In this document: positions 13,355 to 63,073 of the stretch, in pieces
How the letters are laid out: every line of letters starts with the position of its first letter
Numbering within the stretch: the first letter of the stretch is position 1
DNA from: a virus
Lineage: Duplodnaviria; Heunggongvirae; Uroviricota; Caudoviricetes
DNA: 64,000 nucleotides
IMG/VR virus record: IMGVR_UViG_3300028610_001217
Reading direction: 5' to 3' (one strand)
Position numbers and translations under genes: made by a program
The notes under the pieces: model-generated
What the model was told of the DNA's origin: nothing
Seen by the model: only the letters and a program-made list of their open reading frames with translations
Databases searched by the model: none

Positions 13355-13355
13355 G

Positions 13356-25977: not shown

Positions 25978-25985
25978 ATAAACAG

Positions 25986-26466: not shown

Positions 26467-26479
26467 TTGTTAAATCTAG

Positions 26480-26552: not shown

Positions 26553-26556
26553 TCAG

Positions 26557-26628: not shown

Positions 26629-26629
26629 G

Positions 26630-27406: not shown

Positions 27407-27440
27407 ATTTCCCCCATTCTATATTTCAACATTAAACCTG

Positions 27441-27522
27441 TGGGCCGGGAGGGAGTCGAACCCTCAATCCCGAAGGCAACAGGGCTTAAACCTGTTGTGT
27501 ATTCCAATTCCACCACCAGCCC
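27441..27522 (-). tRNA. tRNA-Leu(TAA)
   Basis: Class II with long variable arm; anticodon arm ACAGG-TTTAAGC-CCTGT; D-arm GTGGAATTGGAATACAC resembles bacterial tRNA-Leu. Confidence 0.7.
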
Positions 27523-27526
27523 AAAA

Positions 27527-27874: not shown

Positions 27875-27991
27875 ATATCTTGGATAAGATTTAGTAGTTC
27901 TTCTTCCGTCAGCAAACTTAATGATTAATTGCTTTCGCCCATCCGACCTAATATACGGTCCACAAATCTTAATATATATTCCTTTCTGCAG

Positions 27992-28063
27992 TAGGCAAGG
28001 AGGGGATCGAACCCCCGACCAGTAAGATGTAAACCTACCACTCTACCGCTGAGTTACTCGCCT
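27992..28063 (-). tRNA. tRNA-Val(TAC)
   Basis: Anticodon arm GTAGG-TTTACAT-CTTAC; A73; T-arm GGGGG-TTCGATC-CCCTC. Confidence 0.65.
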
Positions 28064-28069
28064 GCAAAG

Positions 28070-28142
28070 TAGGCTAGGAGAGATTCGAACTCTCACTACC
28101 TGGTTTCTAAAACCAGTTTCTCTGCCGTTGGAATACTAGCCT
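28070..28142 (-). tRNA. class I tRNA with anticodon TAG (reads CUA; unusual for Leu)
   Basis: Acceptor AGGCTAG/CTAGCCT; anticodon arm CTGGT-TTTAGAA-ACCAG with U33/A37; only a 5-nt variable loop (no long arm); T-arm GAGAG-TTCGAAT-CTCTC. Confidence 0.5.
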
Positions 28143-28145
28143 ATG

Positions 28146-28230
28146 TTGGTGGTGGCCGGATTCAAACCGACTTGTTGGCGTTTTCTGACGGACTTACACC
28201 GCTCCCATCCGAAGATAAGTCCCCAACCAG
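28146..28230 (-). ncRNA. tRNA-like 3' element (T-arm GTCGG-TTTGAAT-CCGGC plus CACCACCA 3' end) with unresolved 5' half
   Basis: Canonical T-arm and acceptor-like 3' strand are visible, but no complementary 5' acceptor strand (GGTGGTG) occurs within 300 nt. A 7-bp hairpin GGACTTA...TAAGTCC lies upstream. Confidence 0.25.
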
Positions 28231-28428
28231 TACCATGGTTTTCTCTGGCGGGCAGCATTTAAAGGTCTGCAAATTTAAGACTTTCGCCCTCGACTACCCG
28301 CTTCCCTCGCTACCTATGGGCGCATACTAACGGGCTTGTCGGCCAACTTATAACGTAGAACTTCAGCGTTTCTCACACGCCGCACTACCAATTACTTTAT
28401 ACCCCTATAACGGGAATATAAACCTAAG

Positions 28429-28502
28429 TCCGGATGGAAGGATTCGAACCTCCGTCTTCTCGGCCCCAAACCGAGCGCTCCACCAAACTGAGCTACATCC
28501 AG
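28429..28502 (-). tRNA. tRNA-Pro(TGG)
   Basis: Anticodon arm CTCGG-TTTGGGG-CCGAG; T-arm GGAGG-TTCGAAT-CCTTC. Confidence 0.7.
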
Positions 28503-28508
28503 ATAACG

Positions 28509-28593
28509 CGGAAAGAGCAGGATTCGAACCTACGGAGGATTTCTCCCCTCTGGTTTAGCAAACCAGCGCCTTAAACCTCTCAGCCATCTTTCC
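28509..28593 (-). tRNA. tRNA-Ser(GCT)
   Basis: Class II; anticodon arm CTGGT-TTGCTAA-ACCAG; long variable arm; G73. Confidence 0.7.
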
Positions 28594-28747
28594 AAACACT
28601 AAGCCCTTGGTTGCCTCGGGCAGGGAGCCTGAACTATACCCGAGACTTGAACACATCACATACCAGGGCGATATTCTATGAGCCGCTATTTCAGGAGCGC
28701 ACTCTAGCGTGATGCATTGACATAATACGGGCTTGTCGCCGCTATCG

Positions 28748-28819
28748 CACCATCCCCAGGACTCGAACCTGGAACCGTCACCTTAACAGGGTGCTGCTCT
28801 ACCATTGAGCTACGATGGT
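28748..28819 (-). tRNA. tRNA-Asn(GTT)
   Basis: Loop CTGTTAA; T-arm CCAGG-TTCGAGT-CCTGG. Confidence 0.6.
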
Positions 28820-28820
28820 C

Positions 28821-28896
28821 TGGGGTGACCGATGGGATTTGAACCCACATAACCGGGGGTCACGGCCCCGTTCCGTTACCTATTGGATACGGCCAC
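28821..28896 (-). tRNA. tRNA-His(GTG), CCA encoded
   Basis: Anticodon arm CGGGG-CCGTGAC-CCCCG; C73 followed by genomically encoded CCA. Position -1 is T, so no encoded G-1. Confidence 0.6.
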
Positions 28897-28898
28897 AG

Positions 28899-28991
28899 AG
28901 GAAGAAGTAGGATTCGAACCCACGGACCCGTATCGCTACGGACCAACGGTTTTCAAGACCGCCGCAATAATCCAGACTCTGCCATTCTTCC
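28899..28991 (-). tRNA. tRNA-Ser(TGA)
   Basis: Class II; anticodon arm GCGGT-CTTGAAA-ACCGT; 21-nt variable arm; acceptor GGAAGAA/TTCTTCC. Confidence 0.65.
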
Positions 28992-29041
28992 TAAAGGTCG
29001 GGAGAAGAAAGCGAGGTGAGTCCCAAAAAACTCCCGACCAG

Positions 29042-29113
29042 AGCGACTAGAGGGACTCGAACCCCCAAATAACAGCTTGGAAGGCTGCAGCACTACCATT
29101 GTGCGATAGTCGC
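29042..29113 (-). tRNA. tRNA-Gly(TCC)
   Basis: Loop CTTCCAA; acceptor GCGACTA/TAGTCGC; U73. Confidence 0.65.
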
Positions 29114-29199
29114 ATAAGAGGAACTGGGTCGGAACCCAAAGCGACCAAACTAGGAGTAAGTAAGAAGAGGTGAATCTATCTTTTTCCCAGTTCCTCTAG

Positions 29200-29270
29200 C
29201 ACGCCACCCAGGATTCGAACCCGGTCAAGACCGTTTTGGAGACGGTCTGGCACAGCCTACGCTGTAGCGC
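29200..29270 (-). tRNA. probable tRNA-Trp(CCA) with atypical D-arm
   Basis: Anticodon arm ACCGT-CTCCAAA-ACGGT closely resembles bacterial tRNA-Trp. T-arm CCGGG-TTCGAAT-CCTGG, G73. Acceptor pairs with two G-U wobbles; the D-arm does not fold canonically. Confidence 0.4.
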
Positions 29271-29334
29271 ATACGGCGAGAGGGGACTTTCCGGCGGAGA
29301 AGTATATGCTACTTTTACCCGGCCTCTCACCTTG

Positions 29335-29406
29335 TGGAACGTGAAGGAATCGAACCTCCGACCTACAAGTTATCAGCTTGCCGCTCTACCACTGAGCTAC
29401 CATTCC
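29335..29406 (-). tRNA. tRNA-Ile(GAT)
   Basis: Loop CTGATAA; D-arm GCTCAGTGGTAGAGC; T-arm GGAGG-TTCGATT-CCTTC. Confidence 0.65.
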
Positions 29407-29524
29407 TGGCGTCCCGCATGGGATACATCCACAAACACCTTATCGAACGTGTTGCACCTCGCCCAACCCACGGAGGCATGACGGGACTCCCCCCATCCGC
29501 ATGCATACGAAAGGGTTGAGCTTG

Positions 29525-29604
29525 TAGGAGCGGTAGGAGTTGAACCTACACAGCCGCAACGGGTGCTTTACAGGCACTTGGGTTCACCAATACCCAGCGC
29601 TCCT
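29525..29604 (-). tRNA. tRNA-Tyr(GTA)
   Basis: Class II; perfect acceptor AGGAGCG/CGCTCCT; loop CTGTAAA; 13-nt variable arm. Confidence 0.65.
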
Positions 29605-29702
29605 ATGTCGATAGATTAGCTAATCATCGTTAGCCTCACGACCCACGATCCCTCGTCCCACAACCTCACTAACCTATCTCGGGGGTCTTGCAGCCCCCCT
29701 TG

Positions 29703-29775
29703 TGGATGTAATAGGACTTGAACCTACAACCTTTGGCTTGCAAAGCCACTGCTCTCCCAATTGAGCTATACACCC
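29703..29775 (-). tRNA. tRNA-Ala(TGC)
   Basis: G3-U70 pair and A73 discriminator (Ala identity); loop TTTGCAA; T-arm GTAGG-TTCAAGT-CCTAT. Confidence 0.75.
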
Positions 29776-29784
29776 TTACTGATT

Positions 29785-30021
29785 TCATAATCGCCCACGT
29801 AATTCGTTCTTCCAATTGGTAAGTTCTTTTTCACGGCTAATGGCCAACCACTTCTGGTGTTCTTTGACTAGTTCGCCAATATATATGAAGCCACTTGCGA
29901 GGACGATTATCAGGCAACCTATTGCGCCAACAATACGCTCTCCTTGAAGGGCAGCCGCTAACGTCAACGCTGCTCCGCCACCTAAAAATAAACTTAAAGA
30001 GATTCTCAAAAGTATTAACAT
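29785..30021 (-). CDS. small membrane protein (two TM helices)
   Basis: 78 aa; hydrophobic segments ISLSLFLGGGAALTLAAAL and IGCLIIVLASGFIYI. Confidence 0.35.
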   Translation of the reverse strand: MLILLRISLSLFLGGGAALTLAAALQGERIVGAIGCLIIVLASGFIYIGELVKEHQKWLAISREKELTNWKNELRGRL

Positions 30022-30058
30022 AGGTAGTTCTTACCCCGCTATCCCCAATAATAAACCT

Positions 30059-30496
30059 TTATTCAATAATAACTTCAAGTTCCTTGATCCAATCGCCTTC
30101 AATATAGTATGCCCTTATATCGATATCAGATAAGGATACGATCACGTAAACGAGGCCAGCGTCAACTGCTTTAGCCGTATCTATCATTGAGGGGTAAGCT
30201 TCACTCATTGGGTGTGAGTGCCAACTAGCAATAAGCTCATTACCCTCTTCACGCATTTGCTTGATAACGTTAAACGCCTCAACCGGGTCAACTTCGTAAG
30301 TCATGTTACCCTTTTCCAGGTTCTTTGTAGGATATACTTTAGCGACCCTACGCCGTGACCCGCCTAGCATACCACAAGCCTCTCTAGGGAATACACGTAT
30401 CGCCTCCTCAAGCATGCTCATAGCTACTGCTTGCTTGATGTAGAGTTTATCTCTATTCTCGGTTATCAGCTTCATATTTGATGTGCTTCGTTTCAT
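30059..30496 (-). CDS. JAB/MPN (JAMM) metalloisopeptidase
   Basis: Upstream Glu (EACGML) followed by a perfect JAMM motif HSHPMSEAYPSMID (HxHx7Sx2D); 145 aa. Confidence 0.75.
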   Translation of the reverse strand: MKRSTSNMKLITENRDKLYIKQAVAMSMLEEAIRVFPREACGMLGGSRRRVAKVYPTKNLEKGNMTYEVDPVEAFNVIKQMREEGNELIASWHSHPMSEAYPSMIDTAKAVDAGLVYVIVSLSDIDIRAYYIEGDWIKELEVIIE

Positions 30497-30587
30497 TTGT
30501 TTTTATTTTAGATTTCTCAAAAACCATAAGCGCCACTATGACAATTAAGGCAAATACAAAGAAACCCATAACAAATCCGACTAGCAT

Positions 30588-30926
30588 CTAATCCCCCTCT
30601 ACATCTTCTAATGACCAAGTTTTGACTATTTTGTATACCCAGTAATTACTCCCCGCCCGGTCTGGCCACTCACAACCCTCTTTGCCACAAGTGCTACAAA
30701 CTTTTATTCTCTTATTCTTATAAACTCGACGCTTAACCGTCTTCTTGACGTTATCTACCTTGGCTAGTGCGGCATCAGTTTTTTTAATAGCCTTAGTCAC
30801 GTCTGGCACTGTAACCTTGGTCGTTGGCTTAACTACTTCCTCGCTAAGCCCGGTTGTCGCTATCTTCGGCTTTCTCTTTTGCGTTGCCCCCATTAATGCT
30901 GCTCCCCGCTTTTTTATATTGACCAT
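30588..30926 (-). CDS. basic zinc-ribbon protein
   Basis: 112 aa, Lys/Arg-rich N-terminus, CSTCGKEGCEW motif. Confidence 0.35.
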   Translation of the reverse strand: MVNIKKRGAALMGATQKRKPKIATTGLSEEVVKPTTKVTVPDVTKAIKKTDAALAKVDNVKKTVKRRVYKNKRIKVCSTCGKEGCEWPDRAGSNYWVYKIVKTWSLEDVEGD

Positions 30927-31016
30927 TTATCGCTGCCATTAACATCATAAATATACCCGTAGACAAAACAGCTAAACCAATTAATGCTGGTGTTTCGTTA
31001 AACATGCCTCACCTCC

Positions 31017-31232
31017 TCATGCTACTTTACCTGCGCAACGTTCGCGACGTTCACACTTAGAACATGATGCTTTCGTCCTGCACTCAGAAACGTCCAAGTC
31101 GAAGTGTTTGACGATGCCCTCAAGTTGAACCGCAAATATAGGGTCTCGTAGCGTTTCAATGTGAGCTAAATAACGCTTTAATCTATCATCACGTGCAATA
31201 AGCTCGTATGTTCTACCTAATTGACTATTCAT
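31017..31232 (-). CDS. hypothetical protein
   Basis: 71 aa; C-terminal Cys cluster CRTKASCSKCERRERC. Confidence 0.3.
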   Translation of the reverse strand: MNSQLGRTYELIARDDRLKRYLAHIETLRDPIFAVQLEGIVKHFDLDVSECRTKASCSKCERRERCAGKVA

Positions 31233-31486
31233 ATAGCCTCAGCCTCGCCTACCGTCCACTCAGCGCTACCTATAAGCTCCATTTCTTCCCATTTTGCTCG
31301 ATAATATGCTATGCCACCTGGTTGACTGCTAGTTCCTATGTCTTGAACATACCCTTGAGCGCCCCACGGTTTAGGATCAGTTATCACCATGAAGCAAGCT
31401 GAGAAAGCTAAATTCTCAACCTTATTAGGGTTAAGCTGGACAACGTCCCCTCTTCTTAATGCTGTCATTCTCATAGAGCTACCCAC
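31229..31486 (-). CDS. hypothetical protein
   Basis: 85-aa ORF abutting tRNA-Thr. Confidence 0.3.
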   Translation of the reverse strand: MGSSMRMTALRRGDVVQLNPNKVENLAFSACFMVITDPKPWGAQGYVQDIGTSSQPGGIAYYRAKWEEMELIGSAEWTVGEAEAI

Positions 31487-31551
31487 AGGACTCGAACCTG
31501 TAACCTGCTGCTTACAAGGCAGCTGCTCTAGCCAAATTGAGCTACGGTAGC
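31477..31551 (-). tRNA. tRNA-Thr(TGT)
   Basis: Anticodon arm GCTGC-CTTGTAA-GCAGC; T-arm ACAGG-TTCGAGT-CCTGT. Confidence 0.65.
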
Positions 31552-31732
31552 AAAGGGACTGTTTTTATAGAGCTGTCCTTACTCGCTCTCCCGAATGGGT
31601 TCCCAGTTTCGGCTCGCTGGTTACTAACGCTCACTGCTTGCGCTTTCCCTCCAGTCTGCCAAGGTCTGGGCAACCATCGGCTCCTGCATTATTGGCCTTG
31701 TTCAGCCTCATCAGTTTGCAGCTGAGCCGTTG

Positions 31733-31805
31733 CTGCGAAGGCTGGAATCGAACCAGCGTCACAAGGCTCTTCAAGCCCCTGCTCTACCGCTAGAGCTACT
31801 TCGCA
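31733..31805 (-). tRNA. tRNA-Phe(GAA)
   Basis: Perfect acceptor TGCGAAG/CTTCGCA; loop TTGAAGA; T-arm GCTGG-TTCGATT-CCAGC. Confidence 0.65.
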
Positions 31806-31981: not shown

Positions 31982-32219
31982 TACCTCGTACTTTCCTATT
32001 TTAATTCGTATAAAGTGTGTTATTCCCTAGTTACCTAGAAAACGTCCACCCCCTCCTGTAAGCTCTTCAGCCAATTGGGGATATTAAGACCTGATTACCC
32101 AATAGCTATATTCACCGCATGGACGGCTCAGCTACCCCATGCTCTCTGGCGACTGAGGCCATCAGTCGCTCCCTAACAGCTACTCGTCCATACCTTTTCA
32201 CTGTTCCTCACCAGGTCAG

Positions 32220-32298
32220 TGGAGATAGCGGGATTCGAACCCACGTCCGGACGCTGCCATTGTTGGCCTTAACTCCCGTCGATACCAAATCTATCCCC
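32220..32298 (-). ncRNA. tRNA-like element with G3-U70 acceptor, anticodon unresolved
   Basis: T-arm GTGGG-TTCGAAT-CCCGC; acceptor GGGGATA/TATCTCC (G-U at 3:70). The central 45 nt do not give a canonical D/anticodon fold by hand. Confidence 0.3.
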
Positions 32299-49595: not shown

Positions 49596-49799
49596 CTAAT
49601 CTTTGTCCGGCAAAACAACCTTACCCCGCAAGTGCTTATGCTGCGCTAAGCGTGCATCCTCGTCATGTAGTTTAGCTATTTGATCGCCCAACGCAGCAAG
49701 CTCCTTATCATTTTCTCGAAGCAATTTTAATAAATCAAATGCCGCAACAGAAAGCGCTACAATAAATGCAGCCATAATTATTATTGCAATCAACATCAA
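49596..49799 (-). CDS. small membrane protein
   Basis: 67 aa; N-terminal TM helix. Confidence 0.25.
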   Translation of the reverse strand: MMLIAIIIMAAFIVALSVAAFDLLKLLRENDKELAALGDQIAKLHDEDARLAQHKHLRGKVVLPDKD

Positions 49800-50470
49800 T
49801 CTTCACCCCCCCCAATACCTATAAGCGCCGGATTAAGAACACCGCCGTTTTCGTTAGCCTTTTCACCCTCGTTACCCATCTGAGTATCAAGGTTATGCCA
49901 CTTTCTTAATTCCTCGCCGTGAACCCAAACCTGAGATAAGATATTAACCGACACACCGTACATGAATCCAGTAATCCCTTCCTTGTCTGCTTCGTGGCCA
50001 CAAGCCTTAGCGATCTGTTCCAACTCAGCACCTTTAGCCAACTCCCGCTCCATATAATTCGCCCATCGAGCTATATACCGGATACAACAACTGCCATAAT
50101 CATCGTCGTTCATCTCAACTTGTTTATGCCACTCGTCTTGCTTATCCCCCCTTACTACAAAAGAGTGTAGCGGTTCTTTCTTGAACTCCGCAGTACGTTT
50201 CTCAGCCTCTGCCATCATAACTTTATGAGCTTTACCTTCCGGAGTTTTATTCCATTCTTCCTGTTCCCTATTAACAATATCCCAATACGCTTGAATGACA
50301 TCCTTGACTAAGCTCTTCGGCGAAACCTGTATTCGCTTTTCGTTAAAAATAAGAGTGAAAGTTTGACCCTCCACGTTAGCCATATGAACAACCTTGTTGG
50401 CAGCCTTATCGATACTGCCATATGGGGCTTCATATTCCCACCCGGCCTTAGGTGTCTTCCGCGTTGCCAA
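49796..50470 (-). CDS. hypothetical protein
   Basis: 224-aa ORF. Confidence 0.35.
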   Translation of the reverse strand: MATRKTPKAGWEYEAPYGSIDKAANKVVHMANVEGQTFTLIFNEKRIQVSPKSLVKDVIQAYWDIVNREQEEWNKTPEGKAHKVMMAEAEKRTAEFKKEPLHSFVVRGDKQDEWHKQVEMNDDDYGSCCIRYIARWANYMERELAKGAELEQIAKACGHEADKEGITGFMYGVSVNILSQVWVHGEELRKWHNLDTQMGNEGEKANENGGVLNPALIGIGGGED

Positions 50471-52008: not shown

Positions 52009-52383
52009 TTAATGAAGTACTGGTGGCTCTATCGGCTCCTCATGTTCTCCCCCCTTTTCCCCAGGCAATCTTTCAATTTGTTGGATTAATTGATCTAAGC
52101 GCTTCCCAATTATTGAATTAAATTTTTCAGTTTCCCCTAGGCTTTCCTTAAACTCTTGAAGTAAGCGGTGCCTACTAACTACGTGCCAGGAAAACACCAC
52201 TAAGAATGTACCCTGAACGCCTAGTAGAAAATAAGAAAGTGAACTGCCAACAGCAAGAACAAACAAAAGGTTGATACCTGTTGATAGGAGTGTTGGCCAA
52301 ATTATCTTAATGACCCTAGCATCTTTTATTTCTTGAAGTAATTTTTTCATTAGGTATTTATACCCCCAGGTCGCCAATTCCAA
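52009..52383 (-). CDS. membrane protein (possible partner of the SPFH protein)
   Basis: 124 aa; two TM helices; immediately downstream of the SPFH gene. Confidence 0.3.
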   Translation of the reverse strand: MELATWGYKYLMKKLLQEIKDARVIKIIWPTLLSTGINLLFVLAVGSSLSYFLLGVQGTFLVVFSWHVVSRHRLLQEFKESLGETEKFNSIIGKRLDQLIQQIERLPGEKGGEHEEPIEPPVLH

Positions 52384-53069
52384 ACCTCTTCGCCGTTAAG
52401 ATAGCAACCATCTACCTTGCCCGGCCTAACATATTTGCATAAGAAATCAACCTTGCCTTCACGCTCAACCCGCCAAATAATACCCTCAGCTTTATCAATC
52501 GCCCCATGGTGCCCATGCTCGCCTAAAAGAACTAATGCGTTCTCAAGATTAACAGCTCTTTCGTCACCAAAAGAAAGCATAAATGTCCGATTAAATTTAT
52601 ACGTCCGGTGGAAAAGTTCATAATATGTCGCTCTTTCGTGGCCATTTCGCATAATATCAAAAACTACAAAAGGATCTTCAGTCCAATCATTAGGTAAGTT
52701 ATACCTAGTCCCATGCGCTTGAGCTAACCATTCACCAACCAACCGTTCGCCTTCTTCTAGGAATTCAAAACGCTCGATATTCTTCCGCACCCAATCGGCA
52801 AATAGTTGATGTTGTTCGAATGGTGACGACTGGGCCAAGTACCCGGCACGCCCTAGCGCTAACAATTTACCGTCAACCCTAGCTACCGAGACGTTACTAC
52901 CGTCAAGCTTTTCTTGAACTATAACCGTATCGCCCTTGCGTGGTTTTTCGAGCGCTATCCGTTCTTGACCGGCCTCAATCTTATGATCACCTGGCCCTAA
53001 CCGGCTGCCACTAATATGTGGAATCGAGCCGTATGATTTATGTCCCAGTGGCTTGTTCATCTTCACCAA
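52350..53069 (-). CDS. RNA ligase-like nucleotidyltransferase (KxDG)
   Basis: Motif I VQEKLDGSNVSV; motif III-like VVFDI; motif IV EGIIWRV; motif V LCKYVRPGK. 239 aa. Confidence 0.5.
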   Translation of the reverse strand: MVKMNKPLGHKSYGSIPHISGSRLGPGDHKIEAGQERIALEKPRKGDTVIVQEKLDGSNVSVARVDGKLLALGRAGYLAQSSPFEQHQLFADWVRKNIERFEFLEEGERLVGEWLAQAHGTRYNLPNDWTEDPFVVFDIMRNGHERATYYELFHRTYKFNRTFMLSFGDERAVNLENALVLLGEHGHHGAIDKAEGIIWRVEREGKVDFLCKYVRPGKVDGCYLNGEEVWNWRPGGINT

Positions 53070-55241: not shown

Positions 55242-55264
55242 ACCCCTTTCTAATTAAAATTTCG

Positions 55265-55335
55265 CACTCAGGGAAGGGTTCGAACCCTCATTGACGGGTC
55301 CAAGGCCCGCTGTCCTACCATTGGACGACCTGAGT
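55265..55335 (-). tRNA. tRNA-Gln(TTG) (C33 instead of U33 in my fold)
   Basis: Perfect acceptor ACTCAGG/CCTGAGT; D-arm GTCC-AATGGTA-GGAC; anticodon arm GCGGG-CCTTGGA-CCCGT; T-arm GAGGG-TTCGAAC-CCTTC. Confidence 0.5.
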
Positions 55336-57045: not shown

Positions 57046-58599
57046 TTAGGCTACTGCCTCTATCTTGAGAATAGGCGCATTCAAGTTCTTGCCTAGTTCC
57101 TCAACTTCTGGCCGATGGTCAACATCCTTTTGCTGCGCTCGCATCCAACGAACTGATGCAGTTAGATCTTCTTCCGTTATGCCGGACGGCCCTTCCTTCT
57201 TGGCCGCCAACTCACGCCGGATAGCCTTTGCGATCGCCTGCTCAACTATCGTGGCTATCATACCGCCGCTACACAAGTCGCCTAAAGAAATACTAAACGT
57301 GCCCTCTTTGGTGTGCATACGGTAGAATGCTTTTTCGTTAGAGAATAGGGTCTCAGTTGCACTCAAACTAAGGTTATCGATATTGCATTCAGAATGAAGC
57401 AACGTCTCCCCCAAGTTAAGCCGGAATATTTCTTGAGCGCTCTCTTTAGTTGGGCGACCTATCTTGATCTTGCGATCAATTCGCCCTTCCCTAACCACTG
57501 CCGGGTCAAGCACGTCTGGCCGGTTAGTCGCCAGTATAATCAAAGCGCCTGATTCCTGCAAGCCATCCATCTCAGTAAGAAACATAGGCACGATAGTTCT
57601 TTCCATATCCGAACTTATTCCGCTCCCCCGCCTACCCAATAGGGAATCTGCCTCATCAAGAAACACCACCGCCGGATAACCTTTTTCCTCGCGGAAATCT
57701 TTAGCGTAAGCAAATAAGCGCCTTATGGCTGCTTCGGCTACGCCAACATAGCGGTCGAGTATTTCCGGCCCCTTGACATAGATAAAACCTTCTGACGTTC
57801 CGTCCTTTACGCCGTAGATCTTAGCCAACGAGGTTGCCACGGCCTTACCGATCATCGTCTTGCCACAACCTGGTGGTCCATAAAGAAGAATGCCTTTAAT
57901 AGGTTTCTTACCATATTTCTCAAAAATACCAGGATTAGTATGCGGTAATTCAACCGCATCGACCATTTCCCGCTTAGCCTCTTCAAGGCCACCAATATCT
58001 TCCCAATGAACGGCTGCCGGCAATTGCGCGGCGAACTGGTTTTCGCCTTTACCTATATTGTGGGTGACGACCATGTTTGATTCATCGACCAAAACCCGAT
58101 CGCCGATTTCAAGTTCTTCTTGCCCATGGAAAACCGTGCGAACTTGTTCGTTAATGTTGACTTCGCAATACTTGCCATCTATGACCTTGGAAACGGTTCC
58201 AATATTTCCGGGGATATGTTCTTGGCTCACCGGCTCGTCAGCTATCGTCATAAGTTCCGGGTTCATCTTAACAGGTGAACCCGCCTTCAACCCTAACTTT
58301 TTGACCACTTCACTAGACGCCCATATCTCCATCAGCTTGCCGTTGCTACCTAACAGCACCCGGCGGACATTGATTGTTTTGCCGTTCTTCTTAGGCTCAA
58401 TAATTTTGCCGTCCAAGCTCTTAGATGGTTTTTCGACGGGCTGCTTCTTTTCCTCGCCGATATCTAATACTGTTGCAAATGCAAACGGTGGCTCAGTGAT
58501 GTCCTCAATAAATTGTTTTTGAGCCAAGAGGGACTCATTAGCCTCCTCTAAGCTCTCCTTGAGAGATAGTATTACTTCCTCTTCAGCCGCTGGTGCCAT
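57046..58599 (-). CDS. AAA+ ATPase, proteasomal-ATPase (ARC/Mpa/PAN)-like
   Basis: Walker A GILLYGPPGCGKT; Walker B VVFLDEADSL; second region of homology ILATNRPDVLDPAVVREGRIDRKIKI; KGPEILDRYVGVAEAAIRRLF typical of proteasomal/CDC48 AAA modules; about 250-aa N-domain with a coiled coil. Confidence 0.75.
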   Translation of the reverse strand: MAPAAEEEVILSLKESLEEANESLLAQKQFIEDITEPPFAFATVLDIGEEKKQPVEKPSKSLDGKIIEPKKNGKTINVRRVLLGSNGKLMEIWASSEVVKKLGLKAGSPVKMNPELMTIADEPVSQEHIPGNIGTVSKVIDGKYCEVNINEQVRTVFHGQEELEIGDRVLVDESNMVVTHNIGKGENQFAAQLPAAVHWEDIGGLEEAKREMVDAVELPHTNPGIFEKYGKKPIKGILLYGPPGCGKTMIGKAVATSLAKIYGVKDGTSEGFIYVKGPEILDRYVGVAEAAIRRLFAYAKDFREEKGYPAVVFLDEADSLLGRRGSGISSDMERTIVPMFLTEMDGLQESGALIILATNRPDVLDPAVVREGRIDRKIKIGRPTKESAQEIFRLNLGETLLHSECNIDNLSLSATETLFSNEKAFYRMHTKEGTFSISLGDLCSGGMIATIVEQAIAKAIRRELAAKKEGPSGITEEDLTASVRWMRAQQKDVDHRPEVEELGKNLNAPILKIEAVA

Positions 58600-58688: not shown

Positions 58689-59597
58689 TTACTTATTCAA
58701 TATAATTTTTATTATGTTCCGCTCAGCTTCTTCCCTTGTGTTCTTACTAACAGTTGTTAGGTCAAACCCCTTGGCGAGCCTAACATCGAATGGCTTCGGT
58801 TGAGGGAAGGTTAGCCACGGCAACCTCTCTAATATCTCAGCTGGTTCACCCATATTATTCAGTGCGGCATTCAAAAACTCTGCACACCAAATTAAGCAAT
58901 TCCTCATTTCAACCATGTTGAGCGTTCCAAAGAAATGCCTAAACTCAATAGTGCCATGCTTCTTTAGGCTCTTCATATTTACCGCCGCTCGTGGTGCGAA
59001 TTGGAATAGTCTTTGACCATTTTTGCCTACAGGTGCGTGAGCATCATAAAACTCCTCAAAAGTTTCCGCCCTCATAGCTTCCGCATACCTAGCTTCCGGT
59101 AGCATACACCTGTGCGATAGTAGGTTCTTCCTATGCCGCTTCTTAGCCCACATTAATTCCTCAGCATCGGGAAACAGCTCCGCCGTGGGCTTAATGATAG
59201 GGTCACAAATTTCAAATGACTGATTAACAAAATCATGAACATACTTCAAAACCCGCTTACAACTATCAATATCGTCTATTAGCCCTGGCACCCCAATGTG
59301 CACGTGAAGATTGCACTTGTAATTTATTACCGGCTTAGGCTGAAGTAATGCGTTTATTTCTTTAATATGGGTTATTTGTTCGCCCATAGTAGGTGTTGGC
59401 TTGGTATTAACCTCACCCCCAAATCCATAAAGCTTACCCTTGGGATCGTTGGCTATCCCATTGCTGTTAACAATAGTGTAGTCTTCCCTACTCCAAACAG
59501 CCCCTTCCGGTAGCAACCCAAAGCAATCAACGTCAGCATATTCCAACTCAACGCCATATGTAAAGCCCAACACGCTATAACGCAATGAACTTCTCAC
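58689..59597 (-). CDS. putative amidoligase (GS-like COOH-NH2 ligase, Amidoligase_2-like)
   Basis: 302 aa; N-terminal YGVELEYADVD resembles the amidoligase catalytic start. Next to a class-II amidotransferase, as in phage amidoligase systems. Confidence 0.5.
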   Translation of the reverse strand: MRSSLRYSVLGFTYGVELEYADVDCFGLLPEGAVWSREDYTIVNSNGIANDPKGKLYGFGGEVNTKPTPTMGEQITHIKEINALLQPKPVINYKCNLHVHIGVPGLIDDIDSCKRVLKYVHDFVNQSFEICDPIIKPTAELFPDAEELMWAKKRHRKNLLSHRCMLPEARYAEAMRAETFEEFYDAHAPVGKNGQRLFQFAPRAAVNMKSLKKHGTIEFRHFFGTLNMVEMRNCLIWCAEFLNAALNNMGEPAEILERLPWLTFPQPKPFDVRLAKGFDLTTVSKNTREEAERNIIKIILNK

Positions 59598-60006
59598 AGC
59601 AATTAACTAGATCGCGAACAACGTCGTCATATTTGCTAATGTCCATCTCATAGTTAGGATCGTGGATTCGTTTCTTCTTGATGAGCCCCGCAAAGTTAAC
59701 AAACTTACGCCTATGGGCACGACTACCGCCGCCGATCATAATAAGCTTTTCTAGGTGAGACGGCTGCATATAACAAGCCATATCGGCCCATTCAATTAAC
59801 TCTACGGTCGTCATCTTTGATCTAATCTCGCGGTATTCGAAACCATTCCGCCCTAAAGCTTCACGCATCCGCTTGCGCGTTATGTTCCCTTCGTTACCGT
59901 TCAAGCAAGAAGAATCAACTTCATAATCAGGCGCAAGGCTTTCCATAATTATCTGCGCAGCAGGCGAACGATTTATATTGCCCGTACAAACAAATAGCAC
60001 CTTCAT
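59575..60006 (-). CDS. low-molecular-weight protein tyrosine phosphatase / ArsC-fold phosphatase
   Basis: VLFVCTGNINRSP (CX5R-S P-loop) and a downstream HDP motif; 143 aa. Confidence 0.65.
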   Translation of the reverse strand: MKVLFVCTGNINRSPAAQIIMESLAPDYEVDSSCLNGNEGNITRKRMREALGRNGFEYREIRSKMTTVELIEWADMACYMQPSHLEKLIMIGGGSRAHRRKFVNFAGLIKKKRIHDPNYEMDISKYDDVVRDLVNCCEKFIAL

Positions 60007-61064
60007 TACCTATACACATCCCCAATATTAGGTAAAACAACCTTTTGTTTATATGTGCCTATACCGATATTTACCACTTCCCCTTTTTCTAGGAATTGAC
60101 GTGTATCTTTAAACAAGTTCAATCTACCCTTGCGCACCCCTACCCATCCAGAAATTTCGCCTAACAAGGAGTGATCAAAAAACTCTCGCCTGAAATCCCA
60201 AAGTATATTCCAGTTAACGCCCTCAGGGATATTATCCTGCATCGTTATTATTTCTTGTTGCATCCTGTCTATGTAATAGCCTAAATAGCGTGCTCCCCAA
60301 AACAATTTCTTGTAGGCGCAAAGCGCGGTTTCAATGTTCCAATAAGTAACCGGGATGTCCGGGTTATCAATCGTAAGTTGAGTATGTAACCCGAGCAACG
60401 TACTCTCTAAGAGTTCATAGTTTATGGGTTCTTCAGGCTTTTGGTGATGCTTGGTGACTTGAGCCTCTAAGCCATATACATAACAAAGGCCATTTCTAGA
60501 GCTTTCTGCTTTCTTTAATTCAAGGGTATCTGGGGTCATTTTTAAGCTAGTAAGCTCATTGATGGCCTCCAAATAATTGAATAAGGAGAACCGCCCGAAA
60601 TAATAGATGTTGTCGGCAAATTTGTACACAGCCTTATATCTATCTTCGTATGGAATATCAAGGAACTCCGCAAATTTAGCTTCCTGCTCTAAGCCGCCCA
60701 TTAAATCGCGATAGCTTTCGTAAGAACGCACAAATTTATTAAAGTTCCTAACCTTAGCTCGGTCTGTTTGAAAGAATAACGAACCTCTCTTTTCGGCCCA
60801 CCATCTTTCCATCCTGCCCAAGTCTACGTTTTCCATATCGGGAAATTCATTCAGTATGTAGTAAGACGTTGGAGCGCAATACGTTAAGCCATAAAGGAAC
60901 GCCAACCAATACCTTTGTGACATGTTCAACTCTAATCGGTCAGCAATATAGTTCATAGCTGCATACGACGGGTCGCAATCACCCGCGCACATCATTAGGC
61001 GATAATATTCTTTGAACAATGGTACATTCCTATTCACAAAGTTTCTCCTCAAAAGGCGGCACAA
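60006..61064 (-). CDS. hypothetical protein (352 aa) inside the modification module
   Basis: No motif recognised by eye; tightly coupled to the neighbouring genes. Confidence 0.4.
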   Translation of the reverse strand: MCRLLRRNFVNRNVPLFKEYYRLMMCAGDCDPSYAAMNYIADRLELNMSQRYWLAFLYGLTYCAPTSYYILNEFPDMENVDLGRMERWWAEKRGSLFFQTDRAKVRNFNKFVRSYESYRDLMGGLEQEAKFAEFLDIPYEDRYKAVYKFADNIYYFGRFSLFNYLEAINELTSLKMTPDTLELKKAESSRNGLCYVYGLEAQVTKHHQKPEEPINYELLESTLLGLHTQLTIDNPDIPVTYWNIETALCAYKKLFWGARYLGYYIDRMQQEIITMQDNIPEGVNWNILWDFRREFFDHSLLGEISGWVGVRKGRLNLFKDTRQFLEKGEVVNIGIGTYKQKVVLPNIGDVYR

Positions 61065-61677
61065 TTTCTACGTTGTTCAAATCCCCGCCAGCTCTAGCAA
61101 TTACGTCTATCGTTGATGTGAAGTATTTACAATTTTTATACTCCCCGTAATAAAGCGGCCTCTTATTGTTCCGGAAAGCGTACAAGTGGCCGCCAACAAG
61201 GTACACGCCAGCAAAGCTACACAACGGATTAGCCTTTACGAATTCAGGAATATCTACCCCGTCCATGATTAGCTTCCTAAGGAATATCTCTGCATCGTTA
61301 GCTGAATTGCATTGCACTGAATATTGTTTTTCATATACTTGTTTTGTTGCTTGCGTGAGGATACCGTTCATCGCAATAGCAGTACGTCCGACGATTATAG
61401 GTTGATTGTTTTCCATAACTTCATGATTACCGGATGTTGAGTAACGGCTATGGAATATAAGGGTGTCGGCCTCCGAAGTTTTGAACCCTTCAACAAACCA
61501 ATTAATACCGATACCGCCAGCGCCAAAAATACGCTCTAGTTCAATTGAATTCGCTAGCGAATAGGCCACACCTAAAGAATGCGTTCCCCTGATCCGCAAC
61601 TCCAACATCAATGATTTAATGAAATTGATAGTTCCTTCATCCTTATTTTGAACCTTAACGCCTAGAATCCCACACAT
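61030..61677 (-). CDS. class-II (Ntn) glutamine amidotransferase domain protein
   Basis: N-terminal MCGILG with the nucleophilic Cys at position 2; 215 aa. Confidence 0.65.
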   Translation of the reverse strand: MCGILGVKVQNKDEGTINFIKSLMLELRIRGTHSLGVAYSLANSIELERIFGAGGIGINWFVEGFKTSEADTLIFHSRYSTSGNHEVMENNQPIIVGRTAIAMNGILTQATKQVYEKQYSVQCNSANDAEIFLRKLIMDGVDIPEFVKANPLCSFAGVYLVGGHLYAFRNNKRPLYYGEYKNCKYFTSTIDVIARAGGDLNNVEIVPPFEEKLCE

Positions 61678-61687
61678 AACTTATTGC

Positions 61688-62305
61688 CTACCAAAACGCC
61701 GCTCTAGAAGCCAGTATGTGGCTAACAATTTCTGCGAGTGTTTCTTCGACTGTTGCCTCCGTCGTATCTATGAATAAGGAAGGTATGTCTGGGTGTTCCT
61801 CAACACAATATTCGTAAGTCCGGGTACATTGCCGATTTTTATCTTCGATATTTTTAGCACCGTTCTTATATTCCTTTTTGACGCCATTTCTGACTTCTAG
61901 GCGATGAAGGAGCGTTTCCAAATCAGTATGTAGGAATATGGGCACAACCTGCCGTCCTTGAACTTCCCTGAAGCGCCTAATATTAATCATGTTGGGTAGC
62001 AGTAATCCCTCTATCAAACAATCTTCTTCCTTGAAATCAACTATAAACCGCTTGAGGTTGTCGGTTGTGCTGCCCCCCATATTATTACAATCAGCGCCGC
62101 CCATCTTCTTATCGGGATAATATGGGCCGAAAGCTACATAGCCGTTTCCCTTCGTAATTTTATAGCCATCGTGTACCTCAACTTCATAATCATTACCCAA
62201 TAGATATTTAACTACAGATGTTTTTCCCGACCCATTAGTTCCACAAACAAAAACAATCACGCCTAATCTTCCTCCAATATTTTGTCGGCCAGCATCATAC
62301 AGCAA
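61688..62305 (-). CDS. P-loop kinase
   Basis: Walker A VCGTNGSGKTS near the N-terminus; 205 aa; small-kinase size class. Confidence 0.55.
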   Translation of the reverse strand: MLYDAGRQNIGGRLGVIVFVCGTNGSGKTSVVKYLLGNDYEVEVHDGYKITKGNGYVAFGPYYPDKKMGGADCNNMGGSTTDNLKRFIVDFKEEDCLIEGLLLPNMINIRRFREVQGRQVVPIFLHTDLETLLHRLEVRNGVKKEYKNGAKNIEDKNRQCTRTYEYCVEEHPDIPSLFIDTTEATVEETLAEIVSHILASRAAFW

Positions 62306-62535
62306 TTTGCAACGTCAGCACATTCCAACGCTATTTCTTCAGGGGTTCGCCCTTCAACTAATGCCTCAGTAAGTTCAAATAACTCTTCATGGATCCTTTT
62401 GTAGAAGTACATGCTACCCTTGGTGCCATATTCGTCTAACTTCTTACCACGCAAAACCATTTTACTTCGCATCAACGGAGTAAATTCATCCATCAATCTT
62501 TCAATCATTTCAGTTCTATAAATATTACCGGCCAT
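62263..62535 (-). CDS. MazG-like nucleotide pyrophosphohydrolase (small all-alpha NTP-PPase)
   Basis: HEELFELTEALVEG ... EEIALECADVANCCMMLA, i.e. EExxE and downstream E..AD metal-binding helices; 90 aa. Confidence 0.55.
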   Translation of the reverse strand: MAGNIYRTEMIERLMDEFTPLMRSKMVLRGKKLDEYGTKGSMYFYKRIHEELFELTEALVEGRTPEEIALECADVANCCMMLADKILEED

Positions 62536-62545
62536 ATTGCTCCAA

Positions 62546-63073
62546 TCAGGGCATCAAAGATGGACCATTGCCTAGTCCCTCAAACAATTTATAGTATTCT
62601 TCACGTTCACTAGCCTTATAAAGCGTCGGCTCTTGCCCAAGCTTCATTTGGTGCCACCATAAAAGCATGCGGCCAGTCCTTCCGTTGCCGTCAACAAACG
62701 GGTGGATATATTCATATCTCACGTGCATACTTGTAGGGTCATCCGATACTTTCATATCATAGAGATAGTTTTGCATTAAACCTTCAACATAATCATGATG
62801 AGGAGTCATCCGGCCCCCAACTTCCCTACTGTCTTGACGATAAACTCCTCTTAATTCCGGGTTAAGCAACCCCTTCATTATCATACCGTGAAGGCCACAA
62901 ATAACTTCATGAGTTAATTCCTCTTGCTGAGTAAGCCAAAGCCAAGCCGCAAACGAATGCCCATCAGATTTACGTGAGTCAACGCCCTCTATTAAGTTCG
63001 ACTCTTTGATGTGTTCACGCATATCTTTCAAAACAATCCCCCCTGTTCTTCCTCTTTGTCCCGCATAAAACAA
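62546..63073 (-). CDS. Fic/DOC family protein
   Basis: Canonical Fic motif HPFVDGNGRTGR. Confidence 0.8.
   Translation of the reverse strand: MFYAGQRGRTGGIVLKDMREHIKESNLIEGVDSRKSDGHSFAAWLWLTQQEELTHEVICGLHGMIMKGLLNPELRGVYRQDSREVGGRMTPHHDYVEGLMQNYLYDMKVSDDPTSMHVRYEYIHPFVDGNGRTGRMLLWWHQMKLGQEPTLYKASEREEYYKLFEGLGNGPSLMP

Follow-up and report, generated by a model that had tools for sequence, protein, structure and literature searches.

A five-gene block carried by a Caudoviricetes virus (IMG/VR record IMGVR_UViG_3300028610_001217) represents an uncharacterised branch of a known type of anti-restriction pathway, one that decorates thymines of the phage's own DNA. The whole stretch of DNA that was analysed, 64,000 nucleotides in length, is referred to here as the window. 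On balance, and with modest confidence, we read the locus as encoding those steps of a phage thymidine-hypermodification pathway that follow DNA replication, in which an ammonia route would lead to 5-aminomethyl-dU (5-NmdU), followed by acylation by an amidoligase and an LMW-PTP-fold phosphatase. If this is true, the end product, a bulky N-acyl-aminomethyl-uracil, would shield virion DNA from host nucleases.

Organisation of the locus

All seven minus-strand open reading frames listed in a preliminary description of the locus are present at exactly their stated positions, and their translations contain the motifs quoted there (CTGNINRS, MCGILG, GTNGSGKTS and HPFVDGNGRTGR). On the source contig, five of the gene calls start slightly later (Table 1), and with these starts the junctions range from an 8-nt overlap (GATase/AADT) up to 10-nt gaps; the next gene, past an 89-nt gap, encodes an AAA ATPase.

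Table 1. Genes of the locus, with positions in the window.
Feature	Gene call	Strand	Mechanical ORF	Basis
GS/GCL-fold ATP-dependent carboxylate-amine ligase (Amidoligase_2)	58689..59573	-	58689-59597	
LMW-PTP-fold Cys phosphatase	59575..60000	-	59575-60006	LMWPc
Amino-acid:DNA transferase (AADT, formerly aGPT-Pplase clade 2), GATase-linked clade	60006..61037	-	60006-61064	
Stand-alone class-II (Ntn) glutamine amidotransferase (GATase), glutaminase domain	61030..61677	-	61030-61677	GATase_6, PurF alignment
Predicted 5-hydroxymethyl-dU DNA kinase (5-HMUDK)	61688..62260	-	61688-62305	
Small MazG-like all-alpha NTP pyrophosphohydrolase candidate	62263..62535	-	62263-62535	Sub-threshold PRA-PH
Fic-domain protein (FICD-like AMPylase)	62546..63022	-	62546-63073	

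The conserved module comprises five genes rather than the seven originally proposed. Comparison with approximately 160 related loci (80 seeded with the AADT and 80 with the amidoligase) retained the kinase, GATase, AADT, LMW-PTP and amidoligase (58689-62305), while the Fic and MazG-like genes occurred in none. The GATase-AADT-amidoligase-LMW-PTP block recurs on independent contigs (L004, L006, L083, L084) at 45-55% amino-acid identity and parts of it are found as single fused proteins; the arrangement is far beyond chance.

Kinase and dUMP hydroxymethylase

Profile searches placed both the kinase and the 352-aa protein in the families against which the preliminary description had proposed to compare them (5-HMUDK and aGPT-Pplase). 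The P-loop protein carries the Walker A motif GTNGSGKTS and scores 35.1 bits against Pfam PF18748 HMUDK_HMUD1 (cut-off 27); among cultured phages, it is best matched by ViI gp67 (YP_004327432.1), a verified 5-HMUDK whose RefSeq label of terminase small subunit is wrong (PMC8989533). Homology assigns it to the 5-hmdU DNA kinase family, with a predicted activity that follows from verified homologs.

A check of the genome for a dUMP/dCMP hydroxymethylase found an SPO1-gp29-like dUMP hydroxymethylase gene on the source contig, approximately 6 kb upstream and beyond the window. The best match of this thymidylate-synthase (TS)-family gene is SPO1 gp29 (1e-51), its other top matches are homologs from hmU and M6-like phages, and its product has in common with SPO1 gp29 the Cys, the specificity-determining Asn and a C-terminal extension. 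Hydroxymethylase rather than synthase activity is predicted from these nearest relatives, and Asn rather than Asp at the TS specificity position (N209) presumably marks dUMP rather than dCMP as the substrate. A pathway acting on 5-hydroxymethylcytosine instead of 5-hydroxymethyluracil could appeal to the placement of dCMP hydroxymethylases within the TS family and to the annotation of some database homologs as 'thymidylate synthase/dCMP hydroxymethylase', but is very improbable, given the matches to a dUMP hydroxymethylase and to homologs from hmU and M6-like phages, the residue at N209, and kinase and transferase families that have been characterised on 5-hmdU only.

The amino-acid:DNA transferase

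The 352-aa protein is a member of the AADT/aGPT-Pplase clade 2 family, scoring 69.6 bits against ADDT PF18724 (cut-off 26.2; 4.1e-19). When its AF2 model (pLDDT 93.5) was compared with the PDB using Foldseek, the only significant matches were 8z2m and 8z2n, both PaMx11 gp46, the 5-PmdU glycinyltransferase PUGT (probability 1.0, TM 0.57-0.68). Catalytic D31 and E245-T246-x-x-C249 correspond to PUGT D24 and E243-T244-x-x-C247, and this D/E-T-x-x-C set is kept in 82/82 members of the GATase-linked clade. The donor pocket differs: the glycine-binding W146/K150 of PUGT, kept in 12/12 glycine-type AADTs, become F159/N163 in the window, and across GATase-linked AADTs neither Trp (0/82) nor Lys (0/82) is retained, Y/F and F/I/N/L respectively standing in for them, in an alignment across clades that are only ~15-20% identical (hhalign probability 9.5%) but in which the catalytic anchors do align.

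The closest cultured homologs are ViI-like proteins (~28% identity). Characterised AADTs of the same Pfam family, namely ViI gp247 (Ser), M6 gp51 (Gly), PhiW-14 gp109 (putrescine) and SH-Ab 15599 DADT (1,3-diaminopropane), have a common 5-PmdU substrate logic with the window AADT. However, the descriptions of their clusters that we consulted list no glutaminase partner, whereas the window's clade is always GATase-linked and has a different donor pocket. The original suggestion of a glutamyl- or putrescinyl-type transferase thus holds for the transferase family, while comparative evidence favours another donor, which is probably ammonia from the adjacent glutaminase rather than glutamate or putrescine.

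Together, the PF18724, PF18748 and PaMx11 gp46 fold matches and the upstream dUMP-hydroxymethylase-like gene bear out the base-hypermodification reading of the preliminary description; the peptide-modification alternative that it also offered is unsupported. A cassette unrelated to DNA, serving to modify peptides or proteins or to take over the host, with amidoligase and GAT-II acting as in mobile-element peptide tagging, would suit the classically protein-directed Fic and LMW-PTP families, and Amidoligase_2 proteins with GAT-II-like proteins are reportedly predicted, by Iyer et al. in 2009 and in the Pfam family description, to make peptide tags. This reading is strongly disfavoured, and we give it very little weight: the block itself contains the AADT and 5-HMUDK, a dUMP hydroxymethylase is encoded upstream, and the partners in the ~160 related loci are in every case a TET or TS-like enzyme, a kinase and an AADT, never Fic.

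Glutaminase and the proposed ammonia route

The GATase matches GATase_6 marginally (27.8 bits; cut-off 27). Aligned to PurF (6lbp), it has Cys2, Arg78, Asn104-Gly105 and Asp128 in place, residues conserved in 95-96/96 AADT-linked homologs, all of which are stand-alone, with no GATase-AADT fusion found among them, a point against the ammonia route. It resembles PurF, GlmS and AsnB in its N-terminal Cys nucleophile, glutamine-binding Arg and Asp, Asn-Gly oxyanion hole and proposed supply of ammonia to a partner active site, but differs in that, at 215 aa, it is a glutaminase domain alone, not fused to a synthase domain.

The GATase shares an operon with the AADT in 74/80 AADT-seeded loci, and 60/80 amidoligase-seeded loci also have it. 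Many AADT-seeded loci consist of TET, ParB, kinase, GATase and AADT alone, some of them with a GNAT added, and so encode no further ammonia acceptor. Two routes to the C5 primary amine of 5-NmdU and 5-NedU are known, the gp47 FAD lyase of PaMx11 and the PLP and radical-SAM genes of M6; among the 80 amidoligase loci, GATase (60) never occurs together with gp47 (11) or with PLP plus radical-SAM (2). The mutual exclusion of GATase and gp47 suggests that the GATase acts like an amine-installing step rather than a tailoring step. In ~26 loci, a GNAT with 31% full-length identity to PaMx11 gp48, the 5-NmdU acetyltransferase, lies between GATase and AADT; GNAT-AADT fusions also occur, and gp47 is absent from all of these GNAT-bearing loci and fusion cases. 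To our knowledge, a DNA nucleobase would be an unprecedented acceptor for a class-II (Ntn) glutamine amidotransferase. In many amidoligase loci the GATase adjoins the amidoligase rather than the AADT, a position that would equally suit delivery of ammonia to an acyl-phosphate and counts against ammonia use by the AADT.

That same adjacency (e.g. L111) fits an alternative in which the AADT places an amino acid, for example Glu or Gly, on 5-PmdU, the amidoligase activates the DNA-borne carboxylate and GATase-derived ammonia amidates it, in the style of asparagine or glutamine synthetase, to give a carboxamide such as glutaminyl or glycinamide thymidine. Every characterised AADT takes amino acids or diamines (PMC8989533, PMC13458397), and ammonia is the classical amine of GS-type ligases. 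We nevertheless judge this order of events unlikely: ~69/74 GATase-AADT loci are without any amidoligase; 13 gp46-type loci have an amidoligase without GATase, and there the carboxylate is removed by gp47 or PLP plus radical SAM, leaving only an amine; the exclusion between GATase and gp47 makes the GATase resemble an amine-installing step; and none of the 82 GATase-linked AADTs retains the amino-acid-anchoring Lys or Trp.

The amidoligase/LMW-PTP pair

The amidoligase scores only marginally over the Pfam Amidoligase_2 cut-off. Compared with GS/GCL/PafA-type ligases (Amidoligase_2; YbdK, gamma-glutamylcysteine ligase, Pup ligase), it is much smaller (~295 aa) and has an LMW-PTP-fold phosphatase as its obligate partner, either separate or fused. 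The phosphatase matches LMWPc (1.6e-17) and aligns full-length to solved LMW-PTPs; Cys7, Arg13-Ser14 and Asp116-Pro117 are invariant in 73-74/74 amidoligase-linked copies, with Asn in place of the second P-loop Cys. In 75/80 loci the phosphatase immediately follows the amidoligase; the two are fused in six cases (L083, L155, P0124, P0129, P0130, P0148), and in L004 the phosphatase is fused to a P-loop kinase. By these genomic associations the LMW-PTP is an obligate partner of the amidoligase, a relationship not recognised in the preliminary description and of which we found no report in the searchable literature. We know of no established chemistry that accounts for its role at the locus.

The pair occurs after three different amine-forming routes, including the 13 gp46-type loci, where gp47, or PLP plus radical SAM, is present and GATase is not. 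These loci bear on a further alternative, in which amidoligase and LMW-PTP, fed by the GATase, make a small nucleophilic molecule, for example a gamma-glutamyl amine or a dephosphorylated amino alcohol, for the AADT to transfer to 5-PmdU. We consider this rather improbable, since the same pair accompanies glycine-type AADTs whose glycine-binding residues are intact and after which comes gp47 or PLP plus radical SAM, so that the donor is already defined there, and since GATase and AADT work without amidoligase and LMW-PTP in most loci.

Proposed pathway and closest known systems

The favoured route would run from 5-hmdU through 5-phosphomethyl-dU (5-PmdU) and, by ammonia, 5-NmdU to an N-acylated product. 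Outside the window, the SPO1-gp29-like enzyme, its family supported as above, would make 5-hmdUMP, leading presumably to incorporation of 5-hmdU into phage DNA. The P-loop kinase would phosphorylate 5-hmdU in DNA to 5-PmdU, from which Cys249 and the Glu245/Thr246 metal site of the AADT would expel phosphate to leave an exocyclic methylene, as in PaMx11 gp46. On the strength of comparative genomics and the donor-pocket residues, the nucleophile would be not an amino acid but ammonia that the translationally coupled Ntn glutaminase frees from glutamine, giving 5-NmdU. The amidoligase would then activate a carboxylate with ATP and join it to the 5-NmdU amine as an amide, thereby substituting for the GNAT acetyltransferase of sister clusters, and the LMW-PTP-fold phosphatase would take off a phosphate specific to the amidoligase step, possibly from a phospho-acyl donor after ligation.

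The PaMx11 5-AcNmdU pathway of a Pseudomonas phage (gp49 5-HMUDK, gp46 PUGT glycinyltransferase, gp47 FAD lyase, gp48 acetyltransferase, gp51 dUMP hydroxymethylase) follows the same logic, with the same first two enzyme families, AADT fold and catalytic D/E-T-x-x-C residues, a TS-like hydroxymethylase of the same subgroup and, we infer, a shared 5-NmdU intermediate that is then N-acylated. The window, however, lacks a gp47-like lyase and a GNAT; it has a glutaminase in place of glycine plus lyase, an ATP-dependent amidoligase and LMW-PTP in place of the acetyltransferase, and an AADT with only ~15% identity to gp46, from which the glycine-binding Trp and Lys have disappeared.

Metagenomic-phage clusters with ParB-dependent T-dioxygenases (PMC13229309, 2026) and those described from metaviromes by Lee et al. 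2021 (PMC8989533) contain the same trio of GATase, P-loop kinase and AADT, their AADTs being 40-56% identical to that of the window. Most of them make 5-hmdU post-replicatively (TET/JBP + ParB) and are tailored by a GNAT or nothing, whereas TET and ParB are absent from the window, which has a pre-replicative dUMP hydroxymethylase and the amidoligase/LMW-PTP pair. Co-occurring glutamine amidotransferases and amidoligases have been noted in surveys without an assigned function (PMC13229309, PMC8989533).

Neighbouring genes

The Fic protein, which had been counted as part of the module, is an ordinary FICD-like AMPylase and a bystander: it carries the HPFVDGNGRTGR motif, matches the Fic domain at 1.2e-15 and, in the PDB, most closely matches FICD protein adenylyltransferases (7e-11). 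By sequence, an N-terminal SNLIEG fits the inhibitory (S/T)xxxE(G/N) motif. The MazG-like gene, likewise dropped from the module, scores 18.7 bits against MazG/PRA-PH, under the cut-off of 21.3, has no homolog near any of the ~160 related clusters, and encodes a protein that has no PHROG match and only weakly matches 2p06, a MazG-like structure (E 0.11). It may be a dTTPase/dUTPase that helps to bias the dNTP pool, and a pathway-linked dTTPase/dUTPase has precedent (PMC13458397).

Gene content of the cluster and its relatives

The minus-strand segment at 58689-63073 is very probably a thymidine-hypermodification cluster, in which a 5-hmdU DNA kinase (5-HMUDK), a protein of the amino-acid:DNA transferase (AADT) family and a stand-alone glutaminase (GATase) lie together with an amidoligase and its phosphatase-fold partner (LMW-PTP). 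All seven minus-strand open reading frames (ORFs) claimed in the preliminary description were found at exactly the positions it gave, and each of the four motifs it quoted was found in the translations. The genes as called for the source contig (ENA ERZ27251120 k141_2661871; 102,020 bp; locus L001 in the Table lies on it) start slightly later than the ORFs of the window; with these starts, neighbouring genes overlap by up to 8 nt (GATase/AADT) or stand up to 10 nt apart, and 89 nt separate the cluster from the next gene downstream, which encodes an AAA+ ATPase. A promoter and terminator consensus scan of the region gave counts no higher than those from shuffled sequences and is thus uninformative on transcription or operon boundaries.

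The 64-kb window is a unidirectional tailed-phage segment in which capsid, portal and terminase genes are present. Its TerL shows only ~44% identity to that of any cultured phage, and a nucleotide search of deposited phages with the region found no nucleotide-level relative of the window.

The cluster was compared with two sets of 80 viral loci, one seeded on AADT and the other on the amidoligase, and with the contigs that carry its closest homologs. The GATase-AADT-amidoligase-LMW-PTP block recurs in the closest relatives (L004, L006, L083 and L084). The idea of a single seven-gene system stands as regards a modification cluster and falls as regards the Fic protein, a genuine, FICD-like AMPylase by sequence and PDB match that is missing from all 80 AADT loci, all 80 amidoligase loci and every one of the closest contigs. 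The MazG-like gene probably does not belong either: it is absent from the AADT-seeded, amidoligase-seeded and closest-homolog loci. Its 90-aa product, a candidate MazG-like protein, scores below the PRA-PH cut-off, matches 2p06 weakly (E 0.11) and has no PHROG match. The neighbouring AAA+ ATPase does not travel with the module either: it occurs in none of the 80 AADT-seeded loci and has a match, at any position, in three of the 80 amidoligase-seeded loci. Radical SAM/SPASM genes are found next to the AADT cluster in the three most closely related long contigs (L083, L084 and L085), with none in the window; we regard them as another variable tailoring function.

Table. Features of the window, of the locus L001 on its source contig and of related viral loci. 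Coordinates refer to the window unless a locus is named.
Feature	Coordinates	Strand	Evidence or remarks
Amidoligase (Amidoligase_2)	58689-59597	minus	Pfam 23.1 bits, cut-off 22
LMW-PTP (LMWPc)	59575-60006	minus	Pfam 1.6e-17
AADT (ADDT, amino acid:DNA transferase)	60006-61064	minus	PF18724, 69.6 bits, cut-off 26.2
GATase (GATase_6)	61030-61677	minus	Pfam 27.8 bits, cut-off 27
5-hmdU DNA kinase	61688-62305	minus	PF18748, 35.1 bits, cut-off 27
PRA-PH/MazG-like	62263-62535	minus	Pfam 18.7 bits, below cut-off 21.3
Fic	62546-63073	minus	Pfam 1.2e-15
AAA+ ATPase	57046-58599	minus	PF00004 2.7e-33; faint proteasomal-ATPase OB-domain match
Radical SAM/SPASM genes	L083 10929-11960; L084 9089-10321; L085 13471-14691		Beside AADT cluster
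GT1 glycosyltransferase	L089 6935-8020		Also in 19 other amidoligase loci
DUF2284 predicted metal-binding gene	L001 119-775		Outside window; adjoins hydroxymethylase gene
DUF2284 in related contigs	L083 3896-4993, 5373-5846; L085 5818-6492		Beside kinase, GATase and AADT genes
HAD/PNKP-like and RtcB genes	L001 3933-4376, 5540-6697		Outside window
RNA ligase	52350-53069		RNA-repair set
Tad4-family protein	49796-50470	minus	PF25186 7e-31
23 tRNA genes	25905-31805, 55264-55335	minus	All 20 amino acids
tmRNA match, 82 nt	32217-32298		Rfam 54.6 bits, gathering score 47
Nonulosonic-acid sugar pathway	12668-25141	minus	PIG-L deacetylase, CMP-cytidylyltransferase, WbqC, methyltransferases, GT28, two DegT aminotransferases, two NeuB, PseB-like dehydratase
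Homing-endonuclease-like ORFs	20517-21254, 22335-22988		NUMOD3 + DUF559; one after each NeuB
1150-aa ORF	5680-9132	minus	Mu-F-like head morphogenesis domain; intein-like segment with DUF559/Vsr-type endonuclease; C-terminal HipA-like kinase domain

An AADT-family protein with an altered donor pocket

The 352-aa protein that had been put forward as a transferase candidate proved on profile search to be a member of PF18724 (E 4.1e-19, with an alignment that spans positions 4-227 of the 232 in the profile), which appears to be the current Pfam name of ‘aGPT-Pplase clade 2’. The characterised transferases ViI gp247, M6 gp51, PaMx11 gp46 and PhiW-14 gp109 were filed under that clade (PMC8989533), and the SH-Ab 15599 DADT was formerly αGPT-Pplase2 (PMC13458397). 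An AlphaFold (AF2) model built with 40 homologs as input (pLDDT 93.5) is predicted to adopt the all-alpha, HhH-containing fold of the solved PaMx11 glycinyltransferase gp46 (PUGT): in a Foldseek search of the PDB, the gp46 structures 8z2m and 8z2n were the sole meaningful matches (probability 1.0, TM 0.57-0.68) and the next had E > 1. Only this fold search recovered gp46, which was missed by single-sequence and profile HMM searches of PDB sequences.

In gp46, Cys247 attacks C6, Glu243 and Thr244 form a metal site and Asp24 completes the catalytic set (PMC11472151). Their counterparts in the window protein are C249, E245, T246 and D31; in an alignment of its clade, C249, T246 and D31 are invariant and E245 nearly so, and a wider alignment shows the full set of four in 82/82 GATase-linked AADTs. 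The two clades are very divergent, with an hhalign probability of just 9.5% for the AADT clade against gp46, so that comparison of their donor pockets, which depends on how they are aligned, was based instead on the catalytic anchors and a larger MAFFT alignment: here the glycine-anchoring residues W146 and K150 of PUGT are replaced by F159 and N163 in the window protein. The Trp and the Lys are both missing from every GATase-linked AADT (0/82 each), with Tyr/Phe and Phe/Ile/Asn/Leu at the respective positions; the 12 glycine-type AADTs all keep the pair. The window protein thus belongs to the family by fold and catalysis, yet without this pair it is unlikely to be a strict amino-acid transferase. 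Glutamate or putrescine, as in the glutamyl/putrescinyl-type transfer of the preliminary description, is unlikely to be its donor.

Predicted supply and phosphorylation of 5-hydroxymethyl-dU

The kinase carries the Walker A motif GTNGSGKTS, and its proposed placement among the 5-HMUDKs agrees with its PF18748 score. Its best match in a cultured phage is ViI gp67 (YP_004327432.1), a verified 5-HMUDK (PMC8989533); the match is weak (30% identity over 62% of the query, E 3e-3). The RefSeq label of gp67, ‘terminase small subunit’, is wrong, which also accounts for the PHROG name of the window kinase. A phmmer search of the PDB gave generic P-loop matches only. No HMUDK helical domain or gene (PF18723) was found in the window or in L001 by tblastn with the protein from L155, a related locus; this domain occurs in just 16/80 amidoligase loci, which makes it an accessory rather than a universal component.

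A search elsewhere in the genome for a hydroxymethylase, as the preliminary description had advised, led to a thymidylate synthase (TS)-family gene of 400 aa on the same contig, ~6 kb upstream of Fic and just past the end of the window (PF00303 at 1e-21). Its best cultured-phage match is SPO1 gp29 (1e-51), a characterised dUMP hydroxymethylase, with further matches in other hmU phages and in M6/PaMx11-like phages. The P-C-N catalytic motif, an Asn at the pyrimidine-specificity position (N209) and a C-terminal extension are common to this protein, SPO1 gp29 and PaMx11 gp51. The gene is thus a predicted dUMP hydroxymethylase, which would provide the missing first step of the pathway. Another ten small ORFs, scanned with Pfam for a dCMP deaminase, a dNMP kinase or a dUTPase, gave no match.

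The hydroxymethylase gene adjoins a primase-helicase gene and a DUF2284 gene; the latter recurs in two of the closest contigs and in none of the 80 amidoligase-seeded loci. Between the hydroxymethylase gene and the modification cluster lie HAD/PNKP-like and RtcB genes, which with an RNA ligase gene inside the window make up an RNA-repair set.

A probable glutamine-dependent route to the amine

Alignment of the GATase with PurF (6lbp) shows the N-terminal Cys of MCGILG, R78, N104-G105 and D128 all in place. Of 96 AADT-linked homologs, 95-96 keep these glutaminase residues; in 76 the Cys comes straight after the initiator Met. A search for fusions that might name a partner, AADT included, found none: the GATase stands alone in 23/23 database homologs and in every locus copy, at ~200-240 aa, so a separate acceptor for the ammonia is required. 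In 74/80 AADT-seeded loci, GATase lies upstream of AADT in the same orientation. Most of these loci are minimal clusters of ParB, TET/JBP, GATase, AADT and P-loop kinase, in some cases with a GNAT as well, that run straight into terminase genes; in them AADT is the sole encoded candidate acceptor.

The amidoligase-seeded loci contain GATase with an AADT of the window clade in 60 of 80 cases; in 11, a PaMx11-gp46-like AADT is found with a gp47-like FAD lyase, and in two (L155 and L161) a gp46-like AADT is accompanied by M6-type PLP and radical-SAM enzymes. In these 80 loci GATase never occurs together with gp47 or with the PLP and radical-SAM genes, and the two AADT clades never share a locus. 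The gp46/gp47 route has been shown by experiment to lead to 5-aminomethyl-dU (5-NmdU) and the M6 route to 5-NedU, both primary amines (PMC8989533, PMC11472151).

Around 26 AADT-seeded loci, none of them with gp47, have between GATase and AADT a GNAT whose full-length identity to PaMx11 gp48, the 5-NmdU acetyltransferase, is 31%; GNAT-AADT fusion proteins were also found. An ORF of ~134 aa that clustered with AADT is this GNAT, joined to it through the fusion proteins.

Taken together, gene order, residue conservation and the exchange of partners make it fairly likely that the GATase/AADT pair provides a one-step, glutamine-dependent route to 5-aminomethyl-dU. The adjacency of GATase and amidoligase in many loci would also suit a model in which the two act together in amidation, and this we consider less parsimonious because each of them is widespread without the other.

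The amidoligase and its phosphatase-fold partner

The amidoligase matches its Pfam profile and has a predicted GS/GCL fold. Judged by locus context, it is found after three routes that give a primary amine at C5, and it may serve, with LMW-PTP, as an alternative to acetylation for capping that amine.

LMW-PTP can be aligned over its whole length with canonical LMW-PTPs and shares their DP general acid, and its P-loop C7-TGNIN-R13-S14 and D116-P117 are invariant in 73-74 of 74 copies. The second P-loop Cys of canonical enzymes (CxGNxCRS) is replaced by Asn in 69/74 copies, and neither the redox Cys triad of ArsC nor any other conserved Cys is present in the 74, which marks a distinct LMW-PTP subfamily. 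An ArsC-type reductase that would turn 5-phosphomethyl-dU (5-PmdU) into thymine is unlikely for want of an additional conserved Cys.

In 75/80 amidoligase-seeded loci, the LMW-PTP gene is the next one downstream of the amidoligase. It occurs in two of the 80 AADT-seeded loci, both with an amidoligase, and amidoligase-LMW-PTP fusions are found in six related loci or contigs (L083, L155, P0124, P0129, P0130 and P0148); in L004, LMW-PTP is fused to a kinase. The phosphatase is thus a partner of the amidoligase and not a general accessory of the kinase. The same strict linkage speaks against a role in just clearing away unused 5-PmdU phosphate: a clean-up phosphatase, which is unlikely here, would follow the kinase.

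A hint about the acyl group, and no more than that, is that every structural neighbour of the amidoligase activates a carboxylate of the glutamate type. We speculate that the ligase attaches a phosphorylated hydroxy- or amino-acid that LMW-PTP then unmasks, since this would fit both the strict ligase-phosphatase linkage and the insertion of a GT1 glycosyltransferase gene between GATase and amidoligase in 20/80 amidoligase loci. To judge by that insertion, the appended group or residual 5-hmdU may be glycosylated in some relatives. The source of 5-hmdU in amidoligase loci is TET/JBP in 53/80 and a TS-like enzyme in 14/80.

Proposed pathway and its novelty

The locus genuinely belongs to the 5-HMUDK/AADT systems for thymidine hypermodification, an established type. 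All four pairings of an amine-forming unit (glycine plus lyase, or GATase plus AADT) with a capping unit (GNAT, or amidoligase plus LMW-PTP) were seen, for which a shared intermediate, 5-aminomethyl-dU, is the simplest reading; GNAT and the amidoligase/LMW-PTP pair thus look interchangeable from their distribution among loci. On balance we lean towards the full pathway, in which 5-hmdU would be converted to 5-PmdU, then to 5-NmdU, and finally capped by N-acylation. More tentatively, the cluster may make an undescribed N-acylated 5-aminomethyl-deoxyuridine, with the acyl group added by an ATP-dependent ligase, and so embody two new DNA-directed chemistries: glutamine-dependent amination of a nucleobase within polymeric DNA, in which a stand-alone Ntn glutaminase would pass ammonia to an AADT-fold enzyme, and a GNAT-exchangeable amidoligase/LMW-PTP capping unit attached to three amine-forming routes.

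The gene association itself is already known from metavirome surveys. The association of GATase, kinase and AADT in ParB-dependent T-dioxygenase clusters, which are our minimal AADT-seeded clusters, has been noted with GATase left without an assigned role (PMC13229309), and amidoligase and glutaminotransferase genes have been listed among ‘functions not yet known’ (PMC8989533). We found no report of the ammonia route or of the amidoligase/LMW-PTP pairing in the searchable literature, against which the GATase role, the donor-pocket change, the equivalence with the PaMx11 and M6 routes and the amidoligase/LMW-PTP unit appear to be new. If the pathway is correct, it would yield two useful tools and widen the known chemistry of viral genomes: a one-step enzymatic conversion of 5-hmU to 5-aminomethyl-U in DNA with glutamine or ammonium, and an ATP-dependent ligase for joining carboxylic acids to amines on DNA. 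Hypermodification enzymes are a source of tools for the site-selective functionalisation of DNA.

Other features of the genome

Thymidine hypermodifications shield phage DNA from restriction enzymes and possibly from other nucleases. A Tad4-family protein, the family of a type I Thoeris inhibitor, is also encoded in the window and, going by its profile match, gives this genome another anti-defence function.

Most of the tRNA genes form a single array that corresponds to the GC-rich segment at 28-30 kb; ARAGORN made no call at the Rfam tmRNA match. The window also contains a 1150-aa ORF with several fused domains and a phage-encoded nonulosonic-acid pathway of the pseudaminic or legionaminic type, in which a homing-endonuclease-like ORF comes after each of the two NeuB genes.
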